A stretch of DNA of 64,000 bases from Candidatus Nomurabacteria bacterium. GTDB taxonomy: Bacteria > Patescibacteriota > Patescibacteriia > HK-STAS-PATE-3. Positions 2,297 through 32,289 of the stretch are shown here, in pieces; position 1 is the stretch's first letter; every line of letters begins with the position of its first letter. Made by a program: the position numbers and the translations under genes. The DNA is taken from NCBI GenBank assembly GCA_023898465.1, contig CP060223.1:1018587-1082586 (forward strand). Reading direction: 5' to 3'. The notes under the pieces are model-generated. The model had not been told where the DNA came from. It made no database searches and worked only from the letters and a program-made list of their open reading frames with translations.

Positions 2297-2794
2297 TTAT
2301 TTGATGAGATCTTGTTCAAGGAGCTCGTCGATTTTTTCGTCTAAGTTTTCGAGAGAAGCGCGATCGTCTTCTTTTTCCACCTTGCGAGAAGAGGTGTTTT
2401 CCTCTTTTTCATCGCGTGACTCTTCAGCCTCGCTTTGCGCTTCTGCGCGTCGCTTGGCTTGAATGCGTTCTTGCAATTCCCGCTGGGCTGCTTCCATTTC
2501 TGGAGTGCGGACTGGCAAACGGATAATCTGATGACGTACTAAGTCTTGCTCGAGTCGAAAAATGCGATCGAGCTCAGCTAACTTTGTGCCGTCGATATCA
2601 AGCTCAAGAAGGACATAGAAGCCCTGCTTTAAGTGATTAATCTCATAGGCTAAGCGGCGCTTGCCCATGTTTTCGATTTTGGTGATTTGTCCACCAATAT
2701 CGCTGATGTGCTTTTGCAACGTAGAAGCGTATTGTTCAGCTTCTTCGTCAGTAAAGCGGGGGTTGATGAGGAGGAGTAATTCGTAGTGTTGCAT
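2297..2794 (-). CDS. rpsF: 30S ribosomal protein S6 with a long acidic C-terminal extension
   Basis: MQHYELLLLINPRFTDEEAE...GKRRLAYEI matches S6. True start is the internal Met (cat at 2792-2794); the upstream 40 codons of the track ORF look non-coding. Confidence 0.9.
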   Translation of the reverse strand: MQHYELLLLINPRFTDEEAEQYASTLQKHISDIGGQITKIENMGKRRLAYEINHLKQGFYVLLELDIDGTKLAELDRIFRLEQDLVRHQIIRLPVRTPEMEAAQRELQERIQAKRRAEAQSEAEESRDEKEENTSSRKVEKEDDRASLENLDEKIDELLEQDLIK

Positions 2795-3102
2795 ATGCTG
2801 AATTAAGAATATCGCACGGATGGCGGACCCGGGCGATGTAGACTTAGCTATATCGTGCGGGGGCCCTTGAGGGGTAATCCTTACTTCGCATAGAGCTCGA
2901 AGGACTGTCCGCAATCTCGTTGTAAAAGCACCCTAACACAGGGTTATTTTTTTGGCAAGGGTAGAGAAAGTAAAGCACGAAACTCCAAATACAAGGCTCT
3001 AAACAAATTCTAAATCCAAAACATTTACTAAATAGACTGAATTTAGGTCATTGAAATTTCTTATTTGTTTGGATATTCGATATTAGTATTTAGAATTTAT
3101 CT

Positions 3103-4335
3103 ATGAGACTGTGCTACACTTCTCCTATGCCCCAGTATTACTTTATTCTTGGTAAAAACCCGAAGCTCTCTTTAGCAGAGCTAGACCAAGCCCTGCAGAC
3201 TCGTGCCATTACCAGCGAAGTGGTGGCTCGTGCTTCTGACTACTGTATTTTGGAGACCAAAGAAGAGTTAAATCTGGTGGAGTTATTGCAGCACTTGGGA
3301 GGTACACTGAAGGCAGGGCAAATACTTGAAGGGCTTTCTTCACGAGATGAAGTACAAAGTATCTGCGCAAATGTAGATTGGGCAGAGAAAAAACTACCGC
3401 TCACAAAACATCGGGCAGAATTTGGTATAAGCGTCTACGGGACAAAAAAGTCTGGACCCTTAAGTAAGCGCTATGGTCTAGGTTTAAAAAAAGCATTGCA
3501 GTCAATTGGACATTCTGTGCGGATGATTTTTGATCCAAGCGGCCAACTCAGCAGTGTTACCGTAGCAAAGAATGGATTACTGAGTAAGGGTTTTGAGCTT
3601 TGCGTGTTAGAAAGTGCCACTCAACATTGGCTTGGACTTAGTCAGGCAGTGCAATCATTCCGCAAGTTTAGTGAGCGGGATTATGGCCGACCTGACCGTG
3701 ATGCGCGCAATGGCATGCTTCCGCCAAAGTTGGCACTCATGATGCTTAATATTGCGGGCGCAAAAAGCGGAAGCGTCGTGCTCGATCCTTTTTGTGGATC
3801 AGGTACTGTACTGCAAGAAGCACTTTTGCTGGGATGCAAAAAAGTTTATGGTTCGGATATTAGCGAGAAGGCGGTAAAAGATTCGCAAAATAATGTACAG
3901 TGGCTTAGTACGCAGGAGAAGTCGATTGGCACTGTGCAGATACGTAAAGTTGACGCTCGTCAGCTGCGTCCTACCTATGTCGCAGAGTCGGTTGATGTGA
4001 TTGTGACCGAGCCAGACCTTGGTCCGCCGCGACCGGCGCGTAACGAGGAGCAAATAGAAGAACGACGACAAGAAGCCATTGCTTTGTATCGATCTTTCTT
4101 ATCATCAGCGACCAAGGTGTTGAAGGCAAACGGTCGGGTGGTTATGGCTTGGCCCGTTTGGTCTCTGCAGGATACTCGTTATCACTTGCATCCAAAGAAA
4201 ATACTACCAGACGGCTGGACACTACTTTGGCCCTATGGTGATCTAGTATCGCAGGATGGTGAAAAGACCTTGCTCTATGAGCGACCAGGTCAGTTTGTAG
4301 CTCGTGAGATTGTGATACTCTCCCCAAATAAATAG
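3103..4335 (+). CDS. Putative SAM-dependent methyltransferase (UPF0020/Trm11/RlmL-like amino-methyltransferase fold), substrate unknown
   Basis: Motif I VLDPFCGSGTVLQEA; acidic D/E ...SDISEKA; motif IV-like VTEPDLGPP. Confidence 0.6.
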   Translation: MRLCYTSPMPQYYFILGKNPKLSLAELDQALQTRAITSEVVARASDYCILETKEELNLVELLQHLGGTLKAGQILEGLSSRDEVQSICANVDWAEKKLPLTKHRAEFGISVYGTKKSGPLSKRYGLGLKKALQSIGHSVRMIFDPSGQLSSVTVAKNGLLSKGFELCVLESATQHWLGLSQAVQSFRKFSERDYGRPDRDARNGMLPPKLALMMLNIAGAKSGSVVLDPFCGSGTVLQEALLLGCKKVYGSDISEKAVKDSQNNVQWLSTQEKSIGTVQIRKVDARQLRPTYVAESVDVIVTEPDLGPPRPARNEEQIEERRQEAIALYRSFLSSATKVLKANGRVVMAWPVWSLQDTRYHLHPKKILPDGWTLLWPYGDLVSQDGEKTLLYERPGQFVAREIVILSPNK

Positions 4336-4405
4336 CCTTGACATTGATGTCGGCATTACTTATGTTGGCAGTGTTTGTTGCACCTTAAAGAGGAGGGAAG
4401 AGTCG

Positions 4406-4594
4406 ATGGGAGATTGTGAGGGTGAACACGAGGGCGTTAGGACTGGACTTACGGAAGTCTACTGGGATCCCAAATCAGGGAAGTTTCTATATAGAGGCCG
4501 TACGCGTCCGGGTGTGCCCAGTGAAAGGTCCATCAAGTCGAAGCTCGGGGAGAAGTCGAAATCTCGAAAGAAAAGGAGTGGCAAGAAGAAATGA
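4406..4594 (+). CDS. Small (62 aa) basic hypothetical protein with a K/R/S-rich tail; GC-rich standalone gene
   Basis: Own promoter TTGACA-17-TATGTT (4338-4366), RBS AGGAGGG 7 nt upstream, intrinsic terminator directly downstream. Confidence 0.45.
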   Translation: MGDCEGEHEGVRTGLTEVYWDPKSGKFLYRGRTRPGVPSERSIKSKLGEKSKSRKKRSGKKK

Positions 4595-4604
4595 GGCGGC
4601 GTAT

Positions 4605-4640
4605 GGCGACACATCAGGACGATGGTCGCCTTTTTCTTAT
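4605..4640 (+). terminator. Intrinsic terminator
   Basis: ggcgac-(14 nt loop)-gtcgcc followed by tttttctt. Confidence 0.6.
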
Positions 4641-4689
4641 AAAAAGCAAAAAGCTGAGATAGTGACTAGTTTCAAAAAATGAACGAAAA

Positions 4690-4975
4690 AGAGACTGACA
4701 CAGAGGCCAGTCTCTTTGGAATTCAATCAGATCGCGTTATCGAACACGAGTCCCCATCATTTGTTGACGGGGCCGCGGAATGACGCGGGGAGGTGGCGAG
4801 GGTCGAGTGGTGCGTCTGCTTTGGATGAGCAGGCGGGCCGCCATTCGTACAGCAAATCGTCCGTCAACACAAGGGCGAAGTCCGTATTTGAAATTCGCCC
4901 ACAGGGTTCTCCTGTTCGTGGCGATCATGCCAGTCCTTTCGTTGCAGTGTGGAAAGTGCATTCCCTCCACTAACA
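4690..4975 (-). other. Minus-strand transcription unit (promoter TTGCAG-16-TATACT at about 4985-5012; terminator hairpin agagactg..cagtctct+T5 at 4686-4720). Encodes either a 74-aa Arg-rich ORF or a ncRNA
   Basis: Promoter, internal RBS GGAGGG-5-ATG (MHFPHC...) and a rho-independent terminator are all on the minus strand. Neither translation looks like a known protein. Confidence 0.35.
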
Positions 4976-5030
4976 TAGCTAGTATAGCGCGTTCCTATAC
5001 GACTGCAAGTGGATAGCGTACAATGCACAT

Positions 5031-5717
5031 ATGTCAGAACGATTACAGAAATTTATTGCCCGTTCGAGTCAGTATTCGCGACGCCGAGCTGAGGAGCTCA
5101 TGAAAAGCGGTGTGGTAAAAGTAAACGGCCAGGTTATTCGCCAACTCGGCACCAGTGTAAATCCAGAAGAAGACGTGGTGGAGGTGCTTGGTAAGAGGGT
5201 GAATCCAGAAACGCGGATCCGCTACATAGTTGTACATAAGCCGCGCGGGTATGTGTGTACACGGGCGCGTCATGCAAAAGAAAAAACAGTCTACGACCTT
5301 GTGCCAAATAGTCGAGACCTGGTGATTGCTGGGCGCTTGGACAAAGAGTCAGAGGGTCTCGTACTACTCACCAATGATGGCGCATTAGTGCAGCAGCTGA
5401 CCCATCCTAGTTACCAGCATGAGAAAGAATACGAAGTAGTAACTGCGCAGCGAATCACTGATGCTCATATTGCCAAACTGCTTCGTGGAGTGCCGCTTAA
5501 GGAAGGTTTGGCAAAAGCGGATAAAGTACAACGAATAAGTGAGAAGAAAATAAGACTAGTACTTCATCAAGGTTGGAAACGGCAAATTCGTCGTATGTGT
5601 GAAGTGATTGGCTTAAGCGTATTGCGATTGAAGCGAATTCGCATGGGGAGTCTGAAGCTTGATACACTTGAACTTGGCGCATCCCGCGGTGTGAAAAGGG
5701 ATGACTTTTTAAGTTAG
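5031..5717 (+). CDS. Pseudouridine synthase, RsuA/RluB family, with N-terminal S4 RNA-binding domain
   Basis: S4 domain (RLQKFIARSSQYSRRRAEELMKSGVVKVNG), VVHKPRGYVCT, AGRLDKESEGLVLLTNDG catalytic-Asp motif. Confidence 0.85.
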   Translation: MSERLQKFIARSSQYSRRRAEELMKSGVVKVNGQVIRQLGTSVNPEEDVVEVLGKRVNPETRIRYIVVHKPRGYVCTRARHAKEKTVYDLVPNSRDLVIAGRLDKESEGLVLLTNDGALVQQLTHPSYQHEKEYEVVTAQRITDAHIAKLLRGVPLKEGLAKADKVQRISEKKIRLVLHQGWKRQIRRMCEVIGLSVLRLKRIRMGSLKLDTLELGASRGVKRDDFLS

Positions 5718-6439: not shown

Positions 6440-7057
6440 ATGCAATCAAAAATACTCACCGCAACACTTTCTGTAGCTATTATCATAATGGCGGGTGTAA
6501 TTATCTATTTATTAGGAACAAATAAGGAGAGTCAGACCACGGCGACAACAAATTCTTCATTAACGAACACTAGTGTCTTGGTTGATACGGTGACCGAAAA
6601 GAATTGTTTGGCTGATGATTGTCTCTTGGTTGATAACCTGGAATACCCAGCAGCCAATCTTCCTTCATATGTAATCACCGCGCTTGGCAAAGCAATTGAT
6701 GATGAGTATAAAGCGCGAGCGACTTACGAAGCGGTAATTGATCAATTTGGTTCCACTCGACCCTTCTCCATGATCATCCGGGCTGAGGAGCAGCACATTA
6801 GCTCACTTAAAGCTATATATGATAAGTATGGAGTAGATATCCCGGTTGATCCGTATGAGGTCGACGCTCTCGACATCCCCGATACAATTGCGGAAGCGTG
6901 TCAACTTGGAGTAGAGGCGGAAATTGCAAATGCTGCGTTATATCGAGATGAGTTATTACCAGAGGTGAGCGCATACGCCGACATAATCTCAGTGTTTGAA
7001 AGCTTAATGAATGCCTCACAAGAGAAGCATCTTCCGGCATTTCAAAAGTGTAGTTGA
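6440..7057 (+). CDS. Membrane-anchored ferritin-like protein of the DUF2202 family
   Basis: N-terminal TM helix; DDEYKARATYEAVIDQFGSTRPFSMIIRAEEQHISSLKAIYDKYG...ALYRDELLPEV pattern typical of the DUF2202 ferritin-like fold. Confidence 0.65.
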   Translation: MQSKILTATLSVAIIIMAGVIIYLLGTNKESQTTATTNSSLTNTSVLVDTVTEKNCLADDCLLVDNLEYPAANLPSYVITALGKAIDDEYKARATYEAVIDQFGSTRPFSMIIRAEEQHISSLKAIYDKYGVDIPVDPYEVDALDIPDTIAEACQLGVEAEIANAALYRDELLPEVSAYADIISVFESLMNASQEKHLPAFQKCS

Positions 7058-7107: not shown

Positions 7108-7620
7108 TCATTCGGGGTAGAGGGCGAGCGATGAGCGGTCAACATCTGGCACGTCAGCTAGGCAGAGTGCAGGGGTGAGCGTGGGATCGCGAATGAGCAG
7201 GCTGATGTGAAGTAGATCCTCATCACCGGTACGTTTTGACCGGAAGATGATGGGGTCGCGATACCAAGGCTTGATGATGAGCGTCCATCCCTCTCGCATA
7301 TGACCTGGATTTGCAAAAGTGATTGACTGATCGTGCACAGACGGACTCCAAGGAAAGGAGCTCGTATGTTTCCCTGCTGCGGTTGTGAGTGTAACTCGCG
7401 AGCCAAGGAAGGCGCGATTACAGTGATAGACTTGAATCGAGTCAGGTTCGATGTCCTCGAGTTCGGGGTCAAAGACGGCGATCCGTGGATAAGGAGTCAC
7501 TTGGACTCGCTTCGGACCATAGACATGATCATAGACCCAGGTCACCGAAGCAGGGAATACGCCGATGAGAAGCAGTAGTGAGACGATCACAAGGGAAATC
7601 CAGCCAAAAGCCTTTCGCAC
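7108..7620 (-). CDS. Hypothetical membrane-anchored protein (GTG start)
   Basis: RBS AGGAGG 6 nt before GTG; N-terminal TM segment ISLVIVSLLLLIGVF. Confidence 0.5.
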   Translation of the reverse strand: MRKAFGWISLVIVSLLLLIGVFPASVTWVYDHVYGPKRVQVTPYPRIAVFDPELEDIEPDSIQVYHCNRAFLGSRVTLTTAAGKHTSSFPWSPSVHDQSITFANPGHMREGWTLIIKPWYRDPIIFRSKRTGDEDLLHISLLIRDPTLTPALCLADVPDVDRSSLALYPE

Positions 7621-7794
7621 TACGCACCTCCTGTGCAGGTTTTCCTAAAGAGCAATTGCTATAGAGCACAGCTTAACTGGATTTTGTATTTTCGCCAAGT
7701 CTAAAGTAGCACTTGCAAATTTTTAGCTCCCTGTGGTAAAGCAAAGAAGCTCTTTATCCCGTGAACGCAAAACATTCAAGTAAAGGAGGTTGCG

Positions 7795-8067
7795 GTGTCA
7801 CCGGAACAGCGGAATAGGAAGCGTTTGCGCAAGAGTTGCGAAAAGCAACTTCAACGGAACGGAACCATGCCTCCTGGTCCGTGGAGGTGGGTGCATGGCG
7901 TGCTCTATGATCGCAATGATCAGGAGTTGACTCGCGAGCGTCCAGAAGCCCTTGGTCTCGAGGGCCTCCCAAAGCCGCTCGAACGGTCAGGATCTCGTTT
8001 CCCGAATCGACCGAGGGAGTATGGGCGGGACGGTTCGTCCACTCAGCAGAGGCCAAGCTGGTGGTGA
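7795..8067 (+). CDS. Hypothetical small basic protein (90 aa), GTG start, GC-rich
   Basis: RBS AAAGGAGG 5 nt upstream of GTG; low-complexity basic sequence. Confidence 0.35.
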   Translation: MSPEQRNRKRLRKSCEKQLQRNGTMPPGPWRWVHGVLYDRNDQELTRERPEALGLEGLPKPLERSGSRFPNRPREYGRDGSSTQQRPSWW

Positions 8068-8127
8068 GATGTCTGCAGGTGAGTTGCAATATACTCACCT
8101 GCCTTTTTATTAGTAAAGCCGCGCAAC

Positions 8128-8349
8128 TCAGAGTGAGTGCGCGGCTGAAGCCGGACAAGAATCTTCTTCGCAGTCGGTTTCGTGGTTTCCGGTGGAAACA
8201 TCGGGCTTCTGACGAGTCACGACGAGTACGACGACGAGGAAAATGGACAGTGCGCAGAGAAAGCACACCATAAGTATGGTGTAGTCGGGGTCCGGCGCAG
8301 GCTGAGGCGGATCGACTAGTCCAAAGATAGGGTCAAGGTAAAAGAGCAT
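8128..8349 (-). CDS. Hypothetical small single-TM membrane protein (about 73 aa; internal Met start)
   Basis: RBS GGAGG 6 nt before internal ATG (MLFYLDPIF...); Pro-rich segment then a TM helix; candidate promoter TTGACC-17-TACCAT upstream. Confidence 0.35.
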   Translation of the reverse strand: MLFYLDPIFGLVDPPQPAPDPDYTILMVCFLCALSIFLVVVLVVTRQKPDVSTGNHETDCEEDSCPASAAHSL

Positions 8350-8453
8350 GACTACCTCCGAGTTTGCAGCCATTTGCATGGTAGTTAGTTTTTACCTTTA
8401 GGTCAATAAAAACCTGCGAGTATATTCTTGACAAAGGGTCATGAATTGCTAAG

Positions 8454-8663
8454 GTGGTTTTGTTTACTAGGCTCTTTTTAGGCGAGGTGCACATGGCTGA
8501 GAAAATGCCCAAATCAGTAAAGGCCAAGAACGCTCAGTTTGAGCAATGTCCGATCTGCCGACAGGTAGATATCCGACCACTTGTAGATCATCTCACCCCG
8601 GACGGTAAGATGACCTGTCCTGGACCGCGGCTTCAGGTATGTGACGGTGAATCAAGCAACTGA
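8454..8663 (+). CDS. Hypothetical small Cys-containing (CPxC ... CPGP..C) protein, probably starting at the internal Met (MAEKMPK...)
   Basis: Promoter-like TTGACA-16-TAAGGT upstream; Cys pattern suggests a zinc ribbon. Confidence 0.3.
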   Translation: MVLFTRLFLGEVHMAEKMPKSVKAKNAQFEQCPICRQVDIRPLVDHLTPDGKMTCPGPRLQVCDGESSN

Positions 8664-8675
8664 GGAGGTGTTACC

Positions 8676-8891
8676 GTGGCGGATGGTGAATCGACTGGCG
8701 GATCGATCGAGTACTCGATCGGCACGCCTGAAGGGTGGGAAGAGCTCAAGCGAGCTCAACGAGACCTTCGAGATGCGCAAGCGGGTTCGAGCGGCTGTTT
8801 TCTCCGGCCTCATTGGCCAAAGAGAGAGGTGGTCAGAGCACTGAAAGAGCATGGACTCTTGAAGTCCAAGACTCGTGAGCGACCGTCCTAG
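8676..8891 (+). CDS. Hypothetical small protein (71 aa), GTG start, GC-rich
   Basis: RBS GAGGAGG upstream of GTG; intrinsic terminator 8879-8908 (gcgacc..ggtcgc+T5) overlaps the stop. Confidence 0.45.
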   Translation: MADGESTGGSIEYSIGTPEGWEELKRAQRDLRDAQAGSSGCFLRPHWPKREVVRALKEHGLLKSKTRERPS

Positions 8892-8935
8892 GATGGTCGC
8901 TTTTTCTTTATTGCAAAAACGCCTCGCTAAGAGAG

Positions 8936-9454
8936 TTAGTATGGGATCGAATCAATCAAAGAGTAGTTAGCATTTACAAAATCTTTATAGCTTGACCACG
9001 GCCAGTCCTCAGGTTTATTTACCAACCCATCCCTCACTGGATTATAATGAATATAGTTCACGTGATGATTTAGATCTTGTTGGTCACGGATGATGTGGTC
9101 GTAAAATGATTTTTGCCAAATAAATTTCGTAGATAGCCGAGGATGATCATCCTCGGCTATGAGGTGTGGATATATAATATTAATACTCCTTGAAATGTTT
9201 CTTTTTAGGCAATGCATAAGATCAGAAATATTACTTTCATAACGAGGCCGTAACAAAAAATGTGCATGATCATGCATTACAACATACGCGTATAGATAAT
9301 AAGGTTGGATATTTTTTGTTATTTGGAGTCGGGAGATAACAATATTCGCAAGATGAGAATCTTTGAAGAAGGGAATTCTATTGTGAGTTACAATTGTGAC
9401 AAAATATATTCCATCCGGAATATAGATTCGTTTAAGCTTACTAATAAACAACAT
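8936..9454 (-). mobile_element. IS200/IS605-family Y1 (REP-associated tyrosine transposase-like) transposase gene, very AT-rich
   Basis: HxH motif (MHDHAHFLL) and catalytic Tyr region (FYDHIIRDQQD...YIHYNPVRDGLVN...DWPWSSY) typical of the Y1_Tnp family; GC of about 32% against about 58% flanks. Confidence 0.8.
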
Positions 9455-18322: not shown

Positions 18323-18408
18323 GCCGGAGTGGTGAAATGGCAGACACGCCAGGTTTAGGACCTGGTGGGAGCAATCCCGTGGAGGTTCAAGTCCTCTCTC
18401 CGGCACCA
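18323..18408 (+). tRNA. tRNA-Leu (anticodon TAG), long variable arm, CCA encoded
   Basis: Acceptor gccggag/ctccggc; anticodon stem ccagg/cctgg with loop ttTAGga; T-loop ttcaagt; 3' acca. Confidence 0.85.
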
Positions 18409-18415
18409 CGGCCCA

Positions 18416-18475
18416 TCGCGGGCTGCGGCTTCCGTAGATTCAAACAAGTTGAATCTACGGAAGCCTCCACCCGCG
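18416..18475 (+). other. Long near-perfect hairpin (17-bp perfect core ggcttccgtagattcaa / ttgaatctacggaagcc, extended by gcggg..cccgc) immediately 3' of tRNA-Leu
   Basis: Direct inspection; part of the tRNA-associated repeated element. Confidence 0.7.
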
Positions 18476-21116: not shown

Positions 21117-24203
<3,087 letters not shown>

Positions 24204-24451
24204 AACATTAGAGTTTGGAATAACGAATGCAACAAACATTGACATTCGAGTTATTCCGCGTCATCATTCTTTGCAGCTATGGAAAGACTTAAGCAATTTC
24301 GTGTCAGTCTGAGTCTGATTATCCTCGGATTGGTAGTAACGGCCTTTGTTGGAATCGTTTTAGCCGTCTCGCCAGCCACGTTAATTGGTCCACAATAGTC
24401 CTATTCATGAGGGGCCGGTGGGTAGTAATTCGTCCTAGGCGGATTACTAGC

Positions 24452-24568
24452 CTCCGGTGCTTCAAGCGATGAGGTCACACCCGATCCCATTCCGAACTCG
24501 GTCGTTAAGCTCATCAGCGCTGATGATACTACGGGGCATACCGTTGGGAAAGTAAGCCAGTGCCGGTT
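24452..24568 (+). rRNA. rrf: 5S ribosomal RNA
   Basis: ...cacccgatcccattccgaactcggtcgttaagctcatcagcgctgatgatactacgggg... with terminal helix ccggtgc/gtgccgg; T-rich terminator follows at 24575-24615. Confidence 0.85.
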
Positions 24569-29456: not shown

Positions 29457-30881
29457 TTATTCCAGCGCTTCTAAGTTTACATTAATCTTTGCCTTCCAGT
29501 CGATTTCTAGGAAGGTGTGCAATTTATCAGAGAGATATTTTCGCAGCTCGTCGTAACGTCCTTGGGCTGTTGCCTCGTATTTTACCGTGAGGTAGGGACC
29601 GTTTTGCGAATAACGCACCACAAACATCGCATCTGGTAATTCTAAACGCACGCCATCACCAGCTCGCTCGTCATCAATTACGTCCGCATCAGGGTAATCC
29701 TTTTTCAACTCAGCGCTAATTCTTTGGACCACATCAACTTTTTTTGTATCGTCGCAGTAGAGTTTAATTTCCGGACTGGAGATAAACTTTGGTAGTTGCT
29801 CAAGTGCTTGTGAAAGGGTTTGGCCGCTTCGTGAGAGATAGTGCAGTAGGCGCATGGTGGAGTAGAGGCCATCATCGTGGTTGTAAAAGTCAGCCGAAAA
29901 AAAGAAGTGGCCGGAAAGCTCTCCAATAAAAGCAGCTTTTACTTCCTGGTTTTTCTTTTTAAGGAATGAATGGCCGGTTCGCCACATGAATGGCTCGCCG
30001 CCGTGCTTTGTAATAGTTTCCGGCACGACTTTTGAGCAGAGGGTGTTAAACATTATTTTGGCGCCTGGATGATCCTCTAATACCTCAACCGCAAAAAGGG
30101 CAACCAGCACGTCGTTCCAAATAATGGTGCCTTTTTCATCCACTACGCCAATACGGTCTCCATCTGGATCATAGGTGAAGCCAATGTCAGCCTTAGCTTC
30201 TAATACCGCCTTACGAAGGTCTTCTGCTACATCATTTTCCGTTGGGTCGCAGGTCATAGGGAAGCTCGGATCGACCTCAGTTCGATATTCAATAACTTCG
30301 CAACCAGCCTGCCGGAGGAGCTCTGGAGCAATTGCGCCTGAGGTGGCATGACGAGCATTCACGACCACGCGGAATTTCTTTTCAAGCGGCAAACGCTTAA
30401 TGAGATCGGCATAATAAGCGGGTCGAATATCTTGCTGACGTATCTGACCTGCTTCCTCCCCTTGCTCATAATCCTCTTCTTCAACCATGCGCTGAATTTC
30501 CTGCATACCTTCAGTGACCAGTGTTTCAGAAAGGCCAATTGCGAATTTAAATCCGTTGTATTCAGCCGGGTTATGAGAAGCGGATACCATAGCGCCGCCC
30601 GGGCGATTAAGATAGTGCTGCGCCCAATAAAAAGTGCCAACTAAGTTCATGCCAATATCGACCACATCGATTCCTGCCCAGCTGTATCCTTTCATGAGCG
30701 CTTCACTATAGGCAGGACTGGATGCTCGAAAGTCGCGCGCCACCACTGCTTGGGTGATGCCATGTCGCTTCATATAGGTACCATGCGCCCGACCAAGATG
30801 TTCAGCGATTTCCGGGTTTAATTCTTTATCAACAAGGCCGCGGAGATCATAGGCACGGAACATCGTTGGGGTGATTTTCAT
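29457..30881 (-). CDS. Phosphoglucomutase/phosphomannomutase (alpha-D-phosphohexomutase)
   Basis: ASHNPAEYNGFK phosphoserine loop, GDGDR metal loop, sugar-binding GEMSGH-like (GELSGHFFF). Confidence 0.9.
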   Translation of the reverse strand: MKITPTMFRAYDLRGLVDKELNPEIAEHLGRAHGTYMKRHGITQAVVARDFRASSPAYSEALMKGYSWAGIDVVDIGMNLVGTFYWAQHYLNRPGGAMVSASHNPAEYNGFKFAIGLSETLVTEGMQEIQRMVEEEDYEQGEEAGQIRQQDIRPAYYADLIKRLPLEKKFRVVVNARHATSGAIAPELLRQAGCEVIEYRTEVDPSFPMTCDPTENDVAEDLRKAVLEAKADIGFTYDPDGDRIGVVDEKGTIIWNDVLVALFAVEVLEDHPGAKIMFNTLCSKVVPETITKHGGEPFMWRTGHSFLKKKNQEVKAAFIGELSGHFFFSADFYNHDDGLYSTMRLLHYLSRSGQTLSQALEQLPKFISSPEIKLYCDDTKKVDVVQRISAELKKDYPDADVIDDERAGDGVRLELPDAMFVVRYSQNGPYLTVKYEATAQGRYDELRKYLSDKLHTFLEIDWKAKINVNLEALE

Positions 30882-31012: not shown

Positions 31013-31309
31013 CTACCGACTGGCAGCGACGCCCTTCCAGCGGCCGTTGAAGTGGGTTTTGATGCCCCGCTTCTCGAGCCAGGTGGCGTTTGCAGCCGTG
31101 TCGGTGGTGACCGACGTGGCGTCCGCCCGGAGATGAGTAGCAAGTCGATGCATATCCCCGACTACCTGACCGTCCGAGAAGACAGTCATCTCTTCGTCAC
31201 CTTCAGGTCCGACCATGTAGTTGAGTCGACGACCATCATGCAAGGAGAGAGTGAGCGGAACGCGCTTGGGCTTACGAGCCCGTGTCGGTTTCCCAGTCTT
31301 TGCCGTCAT
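31013..31309 (-). CDS. Hypothetical protein (98 aa), GC-rich
   Basis: ORF with a strong downstream terminator hairpin (ggcgcatccgga..tccagatgcgcc + T-run on minus strand, about 30965-31000). Confidence 0.35.
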   Translation of the reverse strand: MTAKTGKPTRARKPKRVPLTLSLHDGRRLNYMVGPEGDEEMTVFSDGQVVGDMHRLATHLRADATSVTTDTAANATWLEKRGIKTHFNGRWKGVAASR

Positions 31310-31801
31310 ACTTGAGCCCTTCTTTCGAAGTGTGAATCTTCCTATGTCCCATCCATGGGACGCGAACGAAACGTAGAGCAGGCTCTACTAAAGGAATTTC
31401 AGTGTCATTCGACCTCCACAGCTAGCTCCCAATTCCCCCAGTTTCCTCGGATGAACACTCCTTCGATTGAAGGATGAAAAAGGCGAGGTGAGTCTCTACA
31501 TGTTCACTCGGACACAGATAGCAGAGTGTGCTGACGGGTGAGGGCTCAAGCTAACCCAGTCAGTCACAATGCTACCGTGCCGTTTCCTTAGAACAGTCTA
31601 CAGAGAGACTCACCTCAGATCGGTAGTTTGAGATTGCGAAAGAGCAATCGAACTGTACGCACAAAAATAGCCCCTATTTGGGCTTTTGTCAAGACTATAG
31701 CGATAGTAAAAAATTTCCTGGAGCGGGTAGCTCCCGCAATTCAGCGGGATAAAGTCCATCGAACCCGCACTGTATGTAAGTATTTCTCCTTACGTCCTCT
31801 G

Positions 31802-31872
31802 AGCGGGTGAGGGGAATCGAACCCCTGGCATCAGCTTGGAAAGCTGAGGTATTACCACTATACGACACCCGC
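31802..31872 (-). tRNA. tRNA-Gly (anticodon TCC), CCA not encoded
   Basis: Reverse complement gcgggtg tc gtat agtggtaat acc tcagc ttTCCaa gctga ... ggggttcgattcccc t cacccgc. Confidence 0.85.
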
Positions 31873-31938
31873 TCAGAAGAAATAAGACTTAGTAGAGCCT
31901 TTAGAGCAGAATTACCCTAGCAGCTTTTTTCTACCGTT

Positions 31939-32289
31939 TCAAGTCTTAGGCGGCTGCCAAAGATATTTTTTTAGATCCACGGTATACACGCCATTTTTGA
32001 TCTCTACTTGCACACCCTCTTTTTCCAAGAGTCGTTTCTGTGTGACCTGGGTATGAGTTTCGCAAGTCGTACTTATTTCTCCTCGGCTATTAATTACTCG
32101 ATGCCAGGGCAGAGCTTGATTATCCAGTTGATGAAGTGCCCAGCCAACCACGCGGGCTGCTCGGGGTGTACTGATGAGTGCGGCAAGTTGCCCATAGGTA
32201 GAAACTCGCCCATAGGGGATTTGTTCCATTAGCACATAGACAGCTTGGAAGAAATTTTTATTTTGCACTTTCTTTTTTTGTCTCACCAT
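31939..32289 (-). CDS. atl: Alkyltransferase-like (ATL) protein: MGMT DNA-binding domain with Trp replacing the catalytic Cys
   Basis: PYGRVSTYGQLA...RAARVVGWALHQ...LPWHRVINSRGEIS: PWHRV in place of the Ogt PCHRV active site. Confidence 0.8.
   Translation of the reverse strand: MVRQKKKVQNKNFFQAVYVLMEQIPYGRVSTYGQLAALISTPRAARVVGWALHQLDNQALPWHRVINSRGEISTTCETHTQVTQKRLLEKEGVQVEIKNGVYTVDLKKYLWQPPKT

Follow-up and report, generated by a model that had tools for sequence, protein, structure and literature searches.

A long hairpin with a U-tract ahead of a small basic ORFan gene in Candidatus Nomurabacteria: a candidate leader recurring in three lineages

The described systems closest to the locus reported here are the attenuation leaders (riboswitch platforms, T-box, pyr/trp), which present the same order of promoter, hairpin with U-tract, SD and ORF. 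The likeness extends to a monocistronic unit with its own terminator and to a U-rich tail that can pair with the SD. The present unit differs from these leaders, however, in its stem-loop, which measures 132-141 nt, contains about 46-52 pairs and exceeds a normal terminator some tenfold. Also, no antiterminator, aptamer or specifier was found in it, the gene that it would regulate is an ORFan, and no Rfam leader matched at E ≤ 10.

In phage lambda, the N leader runs from pL through the nutL boxB hairpin and a large RNase III-sensitive stem to the small basic N protein. The resemblance, which serves as a lead only, consists of a small hairpin followed by a large one, a long leader, and a basic, fast-evolving protein of ~100 aa. 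The present unit, in contrast, is chromosomal and syntenic with a phosphomannomutase (PMM) gene, and it shows no phage context, no PHROG or viral hit and no similarity to N. With 6S RNA it would share a largely rod-like RNA of ~180-190 nt (as inferred here), but its internal loop is one-sided, with 13-15 nt on the 5' strand vs 2-4 nt on the other, and its 5' and 3' ends are unpaired, the RNA being expected to end at the U-tract. A 6S RNA was rejected on the one-sided loop, the free 5' nucleotides and the lack of any Rfam 6S match at E ≤ 10. A T-box or glycine leader was likewise discarded (no Rfam T-box match, an ORFan as the downstream gene, and a related locus, L171, whose unit stands without a tRNA), as was a retron msr/msd, no RT domain being present among the neighbours (PMM, MGMT-like, TSP3-repeat protein, racemase).

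Because Candidate Phyla Radiation (CPR) bacteria are uncultured and quick to diverge in their intergenic DNA, their regulatory RNAs are, to our knowledge, almost unknown. The locus belongs to a 64-kb stretch of DNA (hereafter the window) from a 1.08-Mb contig of a Candidatus Nomurabacteria (CPR) MAG. A sequence-only reading had proposed that the protein-free region between a 98-aa ORF and a tRNA-Gly gene was one structured ncRNA of about 480 nt. This is contradicted by our analysis, in which the region splits for the most part into ~100 nt of tRNA trailer or relic, a promoter and a ~345-nt 5' leader (5' UTR) of a monocistronic minus-strand unit. All the genes flanking the region lie on the minus strand. 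That it holds no ORF of at least 60 aa was nearly correct, the exception being one mechanical 60-aa ORF with a TTG start (31628-31810, plus strand), which runs into the tRNA. The features of the locus, along the minus strand, are as follows (labels such as L165 denote related loci).

31939-32289, minus strand: MGMT-like gene
31801..31872, minus strand: tRNA-Gly(TCC), found by ARAGORN and scoring 65.7 bits with the Rfam tRNA model; context, outside the leader unit
31708..31768, minus strand: relic of a tRNA-Gly 3' half, from its sequence and an equivalent in L084
31664..31692, minus strand: sigma-70-type promoter-like site, 10/12 matches in the scan
31655..31660, minus strand: conserved (G)CGTAC, 4 nt past the -10 element, CGTAC being invariant in all three lineages
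31634..31647, minus strand: short 5' hairpin UUGC-UCUUUC-GCAA, with a conserved 3' strand YGCAA
31485..31616, minus strand: long rod-like hairpin of 132 nt, from the inverted repeat, folds and counterparts in L165 and L171
31477..31484, minus strand: GCC and a UUUUU tract immediately 3' of the long hairpin, terminator-tail-like
31310..31476, minus strand: remaining 5' leader of ~170 nt, with the blocks CUGGGRG..UGG.UAG..ACUGA (alignments)
AUG 31408, stop at 31388, minus strand: 6-codon mini-ORF with its own GGAGG (31417->31413)
31324->31317, minus strand: SD, AAGAAGGG
31013..31309, minus strand: 98-aa basic ORF (pI 10.4), the gene downstream of the leader
31000->30969, minus strand: terminator of the small-ORF unit (scan: 14-bp stem, then TTTTCC)
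29457-30881, minus strand: phosphomannomutase (PMM)

The absence of a known RNA family, which had been judged by eye, was borne out by Infernal against Rfam, with no match at gathering scores or at E ≤ 10. At gathering thresholds, the 64-kb window returned its rRNA and tRNAs and nothing else; at E ≤ 10 (Rfam 15), the leaders of the window, L165 and L171 had no family in common and gave sub-threshold chance matches only. A search of the literature found no relevant report.

The minus-strand unit and its relatives

The window PMM is one of two paralogues and is thus a poor search anchor; searches anchored on MGMT gave closer relatives. The locus L165 (GCA_043827125.1, MGMT 80% identical) is fully syntenic, with TSP3, MGMT, a 1251-nt gap without a called gene, PMM, racemase, tRNA synthetase and RNase J in this order. 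The best PMM match (78% identical) was found in L171 and L172, where a DEAD helicase is followed by a 530-nt gap, a 113-aa ORF, two PMM genes and a racemase. L172 equals L171 over the 1081 nt compared (L171 1480-2560), which leaves three independent sequences of the unit, those of the window, L165 and L171; the plus strand of L165 and of L171 corresponds to the minus strand of the window. In all three, the order is promoter-like site, CGTAC, 5' hairpin, long hairpin, U5-6, leader, SD, ORF and terminator. The principal counterparts are listed below.

L165, 6748-6776: promoter-like site TTGACA-17-TAATTT
L171, 1640-1668: promoter-like site TTGACA-17-TATGCT
L165, 6825-6964: counterpart of the long hairpin (z -7.0, 0/200 shuffles as good)
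L171, 1724-1856: counterpart of the long hairpin (z -5.1, 0/200 shuffles as good)

Among the loci searched, the leader unit was never found without the small ORF. It is absent upstream of PMM in L174, L176, L178 and L179, where a DUF8173 gene stands instead, and in L085 (MGMT 73% identical) MGMT and tRNA-Gly are followed at once by other genes. A PMM-anchored GTDB scan of 80 loci at 63-71% identity gave no synteny, DNA similarity or small ORF. As judged from these sequence searches, the distribution found so far is narrow and comprises three lineages. Two side observations concern the gene neighbourhood. Both PMM paralogues stand in tandem in L171 (450 and 479 aa; 2547-5440), the window has the 474-aa type only (29457-30881) and L165 the 452-aa type only (7579-8937), the two types being 32% identical, a pattern suggestive of differential loss at a single syntenic position. 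In L169 (2270-4354) and L170 (1077-3161), whose MGMT is 58% identical, DDE and rve transposases and a BrnT/CopG toxin-antitoxin pair lie downstream of MGMT, a site which appears prone to rearrangement.

The promoter-like site of the window is composed of TTGACA (31692->31687), a 17-nt spacer and TATTTT (31669->31664). In L165, the -10 element TAATTT falls below the threshold of the promoter scan, and the site was located by pattern and alignment. The scan of the window and L171 detected no other promoter-like site upstream of the ORF on the strand of the unit. From the position of the CGTAC block, we infer that it is the transcription start region, which would place the start near 31658. The short 5' hairpin, TTGCTCTTTSGCAA in the window and L165 and TTCATTGGCAA in L171, folds alone without significance (z -1.3 to -2.3).

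A tract of U5-6 follows the long stem in all three loci, on this strand only and 2-3 nt from the stem end (AG and U6 in L165, GCC and U6 in L171). The terminator scan calls the long hairpin in none of the three, the stem exceeding the length of the scan model. In the MFE folds of the leaders, the region of the U-tract pairs with the SD in the window and L171; no antiterminator or conserved alternative pairing was seen when the full leaders of the loci were folded (MFE, n = 3), and no ligand pocket or sensor domain was identified in the leader. The SD block CGAAAG(A)AGGG is conserved in the three loci. The mini-ORF encodes MTLKFL* in the window and MNLKLP* in L165, and L171 has only UUG and 2 codons; we do not rely on it because it is not kept in L171. 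Homologous hairpin terminators also follow the small ORF in L165 (7474-7510; TATTGAAAAA also common to it) and in L171 (2466-2498), and after the terminator of the unit the scan gave a new promoter-like site for PMM in the three loci.

The structure had been read on the plus strand. We assign the unit to the minus strand because the conserved promoter-like site, U-tract, SD, small ORF and terminator all lie there. A plus-strand terminator had also been proposed at 31668-31690. The AGCCC/GGGCT hairpin does exist, at 31669-31684, but its plus-strand tail, TTTTG, fails the scan, and the consensus scan accepts the hairpin on the minus strand only, with the tail ATTTTTGTG. As the end of an ncRNA it is unsupported: it sits in the 17-nt spacer of the promoter, and neither L165 nor L171 has it. 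Synteny alone sufficed here to re-assign a structure whose strand had been misread and which had been linked to the closest tRNA.

The long hairpin

The 13-bp long-range helix of the sequence-only reading was confirmed. It is a perfect inverted repeat, GAGGTGAGTCTCT / AGAGACTCACCTC, at 31485-31497 and 31604-31616, whose arms are separated by 106 nt; the second arm had been placed correctly and the first one base off. Such a repeat is by itself unremarkable in 64 kb: the number of 13-bp perfect inverted repeats expected within 300 nt per 64 kb is ~0.3 (an estimate), and several others were listed in the window. Those with a spacing of 256-280 nt are mutually unrelated, and all of those checked against the ORF list (3/3) are coding DNA.

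The repeat forms the base helix (P1, 13 perfect bp and an extension) of a nearly continuous hairpin, which has a GC-rich apical stem and an asymmetric internal loop on the 5' strand. This loop holds UUCU..G..AAC in all three loci. Compared with dinucleotide shuffles, the hairpin stretch (143 nt) gave z -4.69 on the plus strand and z -5.34 on the minus strand, with 0/200 shuffles as good, and the flanks at 31340-31484 and 31655-31800 are without significant structure (z -0.5 to -1.6). The hairpin occupies the same place in each locus and measures 132 nt in the window, 140-141 nt in L165 and ~133 nt in L171. The stability of the stem favours the sense strand in the window and L165 and the antisense strand in L171 (-65 vs -59 kcal/mol); the G-U counts are uninformative on strand. 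Within the 64 kb of the window the hairpin occurs once, and the 179 loci yielded no additional copy; over this coverage, the single copy speaks against a MITE or other dispersed repeat.

The covariation check gave evidence of a maintained helix. The blastn searches detected no similarity of the leader unit among the loci, which are therefore well diverged. Since the MAFFT alignments of the hairpin were out of register by 1-2 nt, P1 was aligned by hand from three independent folds, so that the following counts concern three sequences and one helix. In the outer 10 pairs of P1, standard pairs occupy 29/30 cells, with four compensatory changes (U-A to C-G, G-C to A-U, A-U to G-C, and U-A to C-G), and at positions 3-10 no change disrupts pairing. 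When the partners were slid by 1-3 columns, 33-42% of the cells were paired, without double changes, and 7/500 shuffles reached the observed values. Taken together, these comparisons argue for a stem that is real and evolutionarily maintained across the three lineages, a signal that is real but thin.

When filters were off, a covariance model built from the window sequence alone placed L165 at the right coordinates, but with no more than 13.1 bits (E 0.13), a score that an unrelated terminator equalled. With filters off it did not recover L171, and with default filters it gave no match. The divergence among the three copies is too great for a model made from a single sequence.

The small basic ORF, the proposed mechanism and its rivals

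The 98-aa ORF corresponds to NCBI H6760_05215, the sole member of its protein cluster, and both codon-position GC and codon log-likelihood favour its frame. The ORFs of the three loci encode 98 aa in the window, 109 aa in L165 and 113 aa in L171, with pI values of 9.4-10.4. By BLASTP, the window ORF matched that of L165 with E 9e-5 and that of L171 with E 0.015, and the matches are collinear. For the 98-aa ORF, a word search of 5.8 billion proteins returned only itself, and phmmer against 1.84 billion representatives returned itself and a spurious 7-repeat surface protein of Bacteroidota. It matched nothing in Pfam, PHROGs, PADLOC, PDB sequences or viral contigs. As far as these comparisons reach, the small protein has no detectable family and is an ORFan.

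An AlphaFold model predicted from the window sequence alone had a pLDDT of 60.8, and its Foldseek list was rich in Hfq, every hit having E about 1. An alignment of the 98-aa ORF with E. coli Hfq was not obtained by BLASTP, and neither phmmer nor a profile against PDB retrieved Hfq. We consequently set aside an Hfq or Sm-like identity as unsupported, given the lack of a Pfam hit, of Hfq by sequence and of any Foldseek hit better than E about 1.

We hypothesize, with middling confidence, that the long hairpin and its U-tract constitute a cis-acting leader or attenuator controlling the small ORF. A minus-strand RNA would start near 31658 from the sigma-70-type promoter (31692->31664), would fold into the short 5' hairpin and then into the 132-nt rod (31616->31485), and would continue with GCC-UUUUU. 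The SD and start codon of the small protein (31309->31013) would come ~170 nt past the U-tract, and the unit would end at 31000->30969. Hairpin and U-tract would then act as a leaky or conditional stop in cis, either by premature termination or as an RNase processing site, and the U-rich tail might in addition mask the SD, so that expression of the small protein would be limited. A possible agent for relieving the block is the small protein itself. If termination were premature, an RNA of ~180 nt would be set free, and this mechanism would be hard to separate from that of a stand-alone sRNA.

Such a stand-alone sRNA, of ~180 nt, on the minus strand and ending at the U-tract, would act in trans or with a protein partner, and the ORF would be expressed via read-through. 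Its 3' end would resemble that of Rho-independent sRNAs in its hairpin and U tail, and the stretch between the putative start region and the U-tract has much the same length in the three lineages (about 183, 190 and 186 nt). We consider it unlikely all the same, as the interval from U-tract to ORF contains no second promoter-like site in any of the three loci, conserved blocks are also found downstream of the U-tract, and the unit always came with its ORF. It is a little harder still to credit a feature of the DNA or a relic, in which the palindrome of a decayed integrated element would be retained for its structure as DNA, be it a hairpin or a cruciform; single-strand origins and recombination sites would be examples. 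Both strands do fold about equally well, the unit has tRNA relics or a tRNA-like minihelix beside it in each of the three loci, the window ORF has 60% GC vs 49% for the window, and transposases lie downstream of MGMT in another relative. Against this quite improbable origin, no integrase, Rep or transposase was detected in the window, L165 or L171 loci, phage and plasmid DNA similarity searches matched the tRNA and nothing else, and the ORF has no viral relatives. Also, the single copy in the window and 179 loci, and the conservation of promoter, U-tract and SD on one strand, argue against it, as does a unit GC close to that of the surroundings in L165 and L171.

The palindrome might also be fortuitous, without function in fast-evolving spacer DNA, as its very narrow distribution would allow (it is missing from L174, L176, L178, L179 and the 80 GTDB loci), together with the weak hold-out score of the window-only covariance model. 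This is very improbable in our view: in a setting too diverged for blastn, the three sequences keep a stem of the same size in the same place, with the four compensatory changes and with positions 3-10 undisrupted. There is, finally, the plus-strand reading, a structured ncRNA with a length of up to 480 nt, the 13-bp helix as its closing stem, a 3' end at 31668-31690 and a functional tie to tRNA-Gly. The plus strand of 31310-31800 folds significantly (z -4.76) and the AGCCC/GGGCT hairpin is genuine. Nevertheless, no conserved plus-strand promoter was found, the tail TTTTG fails the scan, L165 and L171 have no AGCCC/GGGCT, the L171 unit lacks a tRNA and Rfam gives no match, so that this reading is scarcely tenable.

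The cis-acting leader may be extended, more speculatively, to a self-contained and fast-evolving two-part module confined to a small CPR clade, in which a ~180-nt rod RNA with a U tail would be paired with a cognate small basic RNA-binding protein. The protein would bind or autoregulate via the hairpin, would possibly be a small beta-barrel of the Sm/Hfq type, and the pair would move or be replaced beside tRNA-like sequences. We regard this extension as a long shot; if true, it would represent an RNA-protein pair without a described family. More generally, the unit probably represents a family of leaders or sRNAs that is new and narrowly distributed. It offers a testable object, with a promoter, an unusually long hairpin and U-tract, an ORFan basic protein, and a stem kept by compensatory changes in three lineages. 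If confirmed, it would provide a new leader or sRNA family and a regulatory context for an ORFan protein, with a wider impact limited by the narrow distribution found so far.

tRNA-Gly and tRNA-like neighbours

A functional link with tRNA-Gly had been suggested from proximity. This was not sustained: L171 carries the whole unit with no tRNA within 9.4 kb, so that the tRNA-Gly neighbour is incidental, and L085 has MGMT and tRNA-Gly without the unit. The two tandem gcggg/cccgc hairpins beside the tRNA are present, but at 31723-31737 and 31744-31768 and not at 31733-31790, and the T-loop-like GCGGGTTCGATGG does occur on the minus strand (31768->31756). Neither belongs to the leader; they make up a feature of their own, the degenerate 3' half of a tRNA-Gly, which has a counterpart in L084.

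This relic consists, from 31768->31719, of GCGGGTTCGAT, a 22-nt insert and GGGAGCTACCCGCTCCA, after which comes a run of T6 (31713->31708), and it holds alternative GCGGG/CCCGC hairpins. The region is probably a tRNA trailer or terminator. In the window alone, its similarity to the tRNA is at chance (best local score 20; shuffled mean 16.7, 95th percentile 21), so that the relic is credible only through L084. There, the relic (2017->1955) has the same layout, and its first part is identical to the 3' half of its own tRNA-Gly at 22/23 nt. The relic end (window 31719-31739, minus strand; L084 1955-1975), ...CCCGCTCCA, has an encoded CCA, and the end of the functional tRNA-Gly gene, ...CCCGCTCAG, is without an encoded CCA.

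Scars of integration at tRNA genes are comparable for 31708-31768 only, in that a degenerate 3'-half copy lies just downstream of the intact tRNA-Gly and that related loci carry 5' or 3' half copies. They differ by the absence here of an integrase or island between the copies, which are 30-90 nt apart, and by the ~22-nt T-loop insertion and encoded CCA of the relic. A tRNA-targeted integrated element at 31708-31768 was discarded on the mere ~30 nt that separate tRNA and relic and the lack of an integrase nearby, even though partial copies recur in relatives.

The motif TCCCGC/GCGGGA adjoins tRNA-Gly in L164, L165 and L167. In these three loci, 5'-half copies of tRNA-Gly end in ...CTTC and then TCCCGC, and are followed by an AT-rich spacer, the palindrome GCGGGATCCCGC and an intact tRNA-Gly. 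This 5'-half layout upstream of the intact gene occupies 6540-6655 (minus strand) in L165 and 1979-2050 in L167, with a spacer of ~22 nt. In L164 (1358-1628; MGMT 87% identical), a tRNA-Gly(TCC) of the window type is interrupted in the anticodon, precisely at the junction of nucleotides 34 and 35, by an insert of ~165 nt that is bounded by TCCCGC...GCGGGA and contains a second complete tRNA-Gly(TCC) (1488-1560). A further 29-nt insert in the D-loop holds a CCGC-UUCG-GCGG hairpin, and the joined pieces restore the window tRNA. Either nested insertions or an arrangement like that of an intron could account for this.

The tRNA-Gly gene has the orientation of MGMT in the window, L085 and L164, and the reverse orientation in L084 and L165. 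Upstream of tRNA-Gly or its 5' half, three loci have the conserved motif TAGGGTAATTYTGCT (window 31873-31925, minus strand; L164 1304-1333; L165 6650-6673); it resembles TAnnTTTG and may be the tRNA promoter. In L171, a tRNA-like minihelix reduced to acceptor stem and T arm lies between the small-ORF stop and the terminator (2405-2447), and scores 23.3 bits (E 0.007) with the Rfam tRNA model, under the gathering score.

Elsewhere in the window, 5S follows 23S, and the rRNA genes appear unlinked because no 16S occurs anywhere within the 64 kb. The 23S rRNA match at 21117-24568 spans 3087 nt vs a model of 2925 positions, and this gene probably carries an insertion. Directly 3' of tRNA-Leu (18323-18408) lies another hairpin (18417-18475), with 27-nt arms that are 89% complementary and a 5-nt loop.
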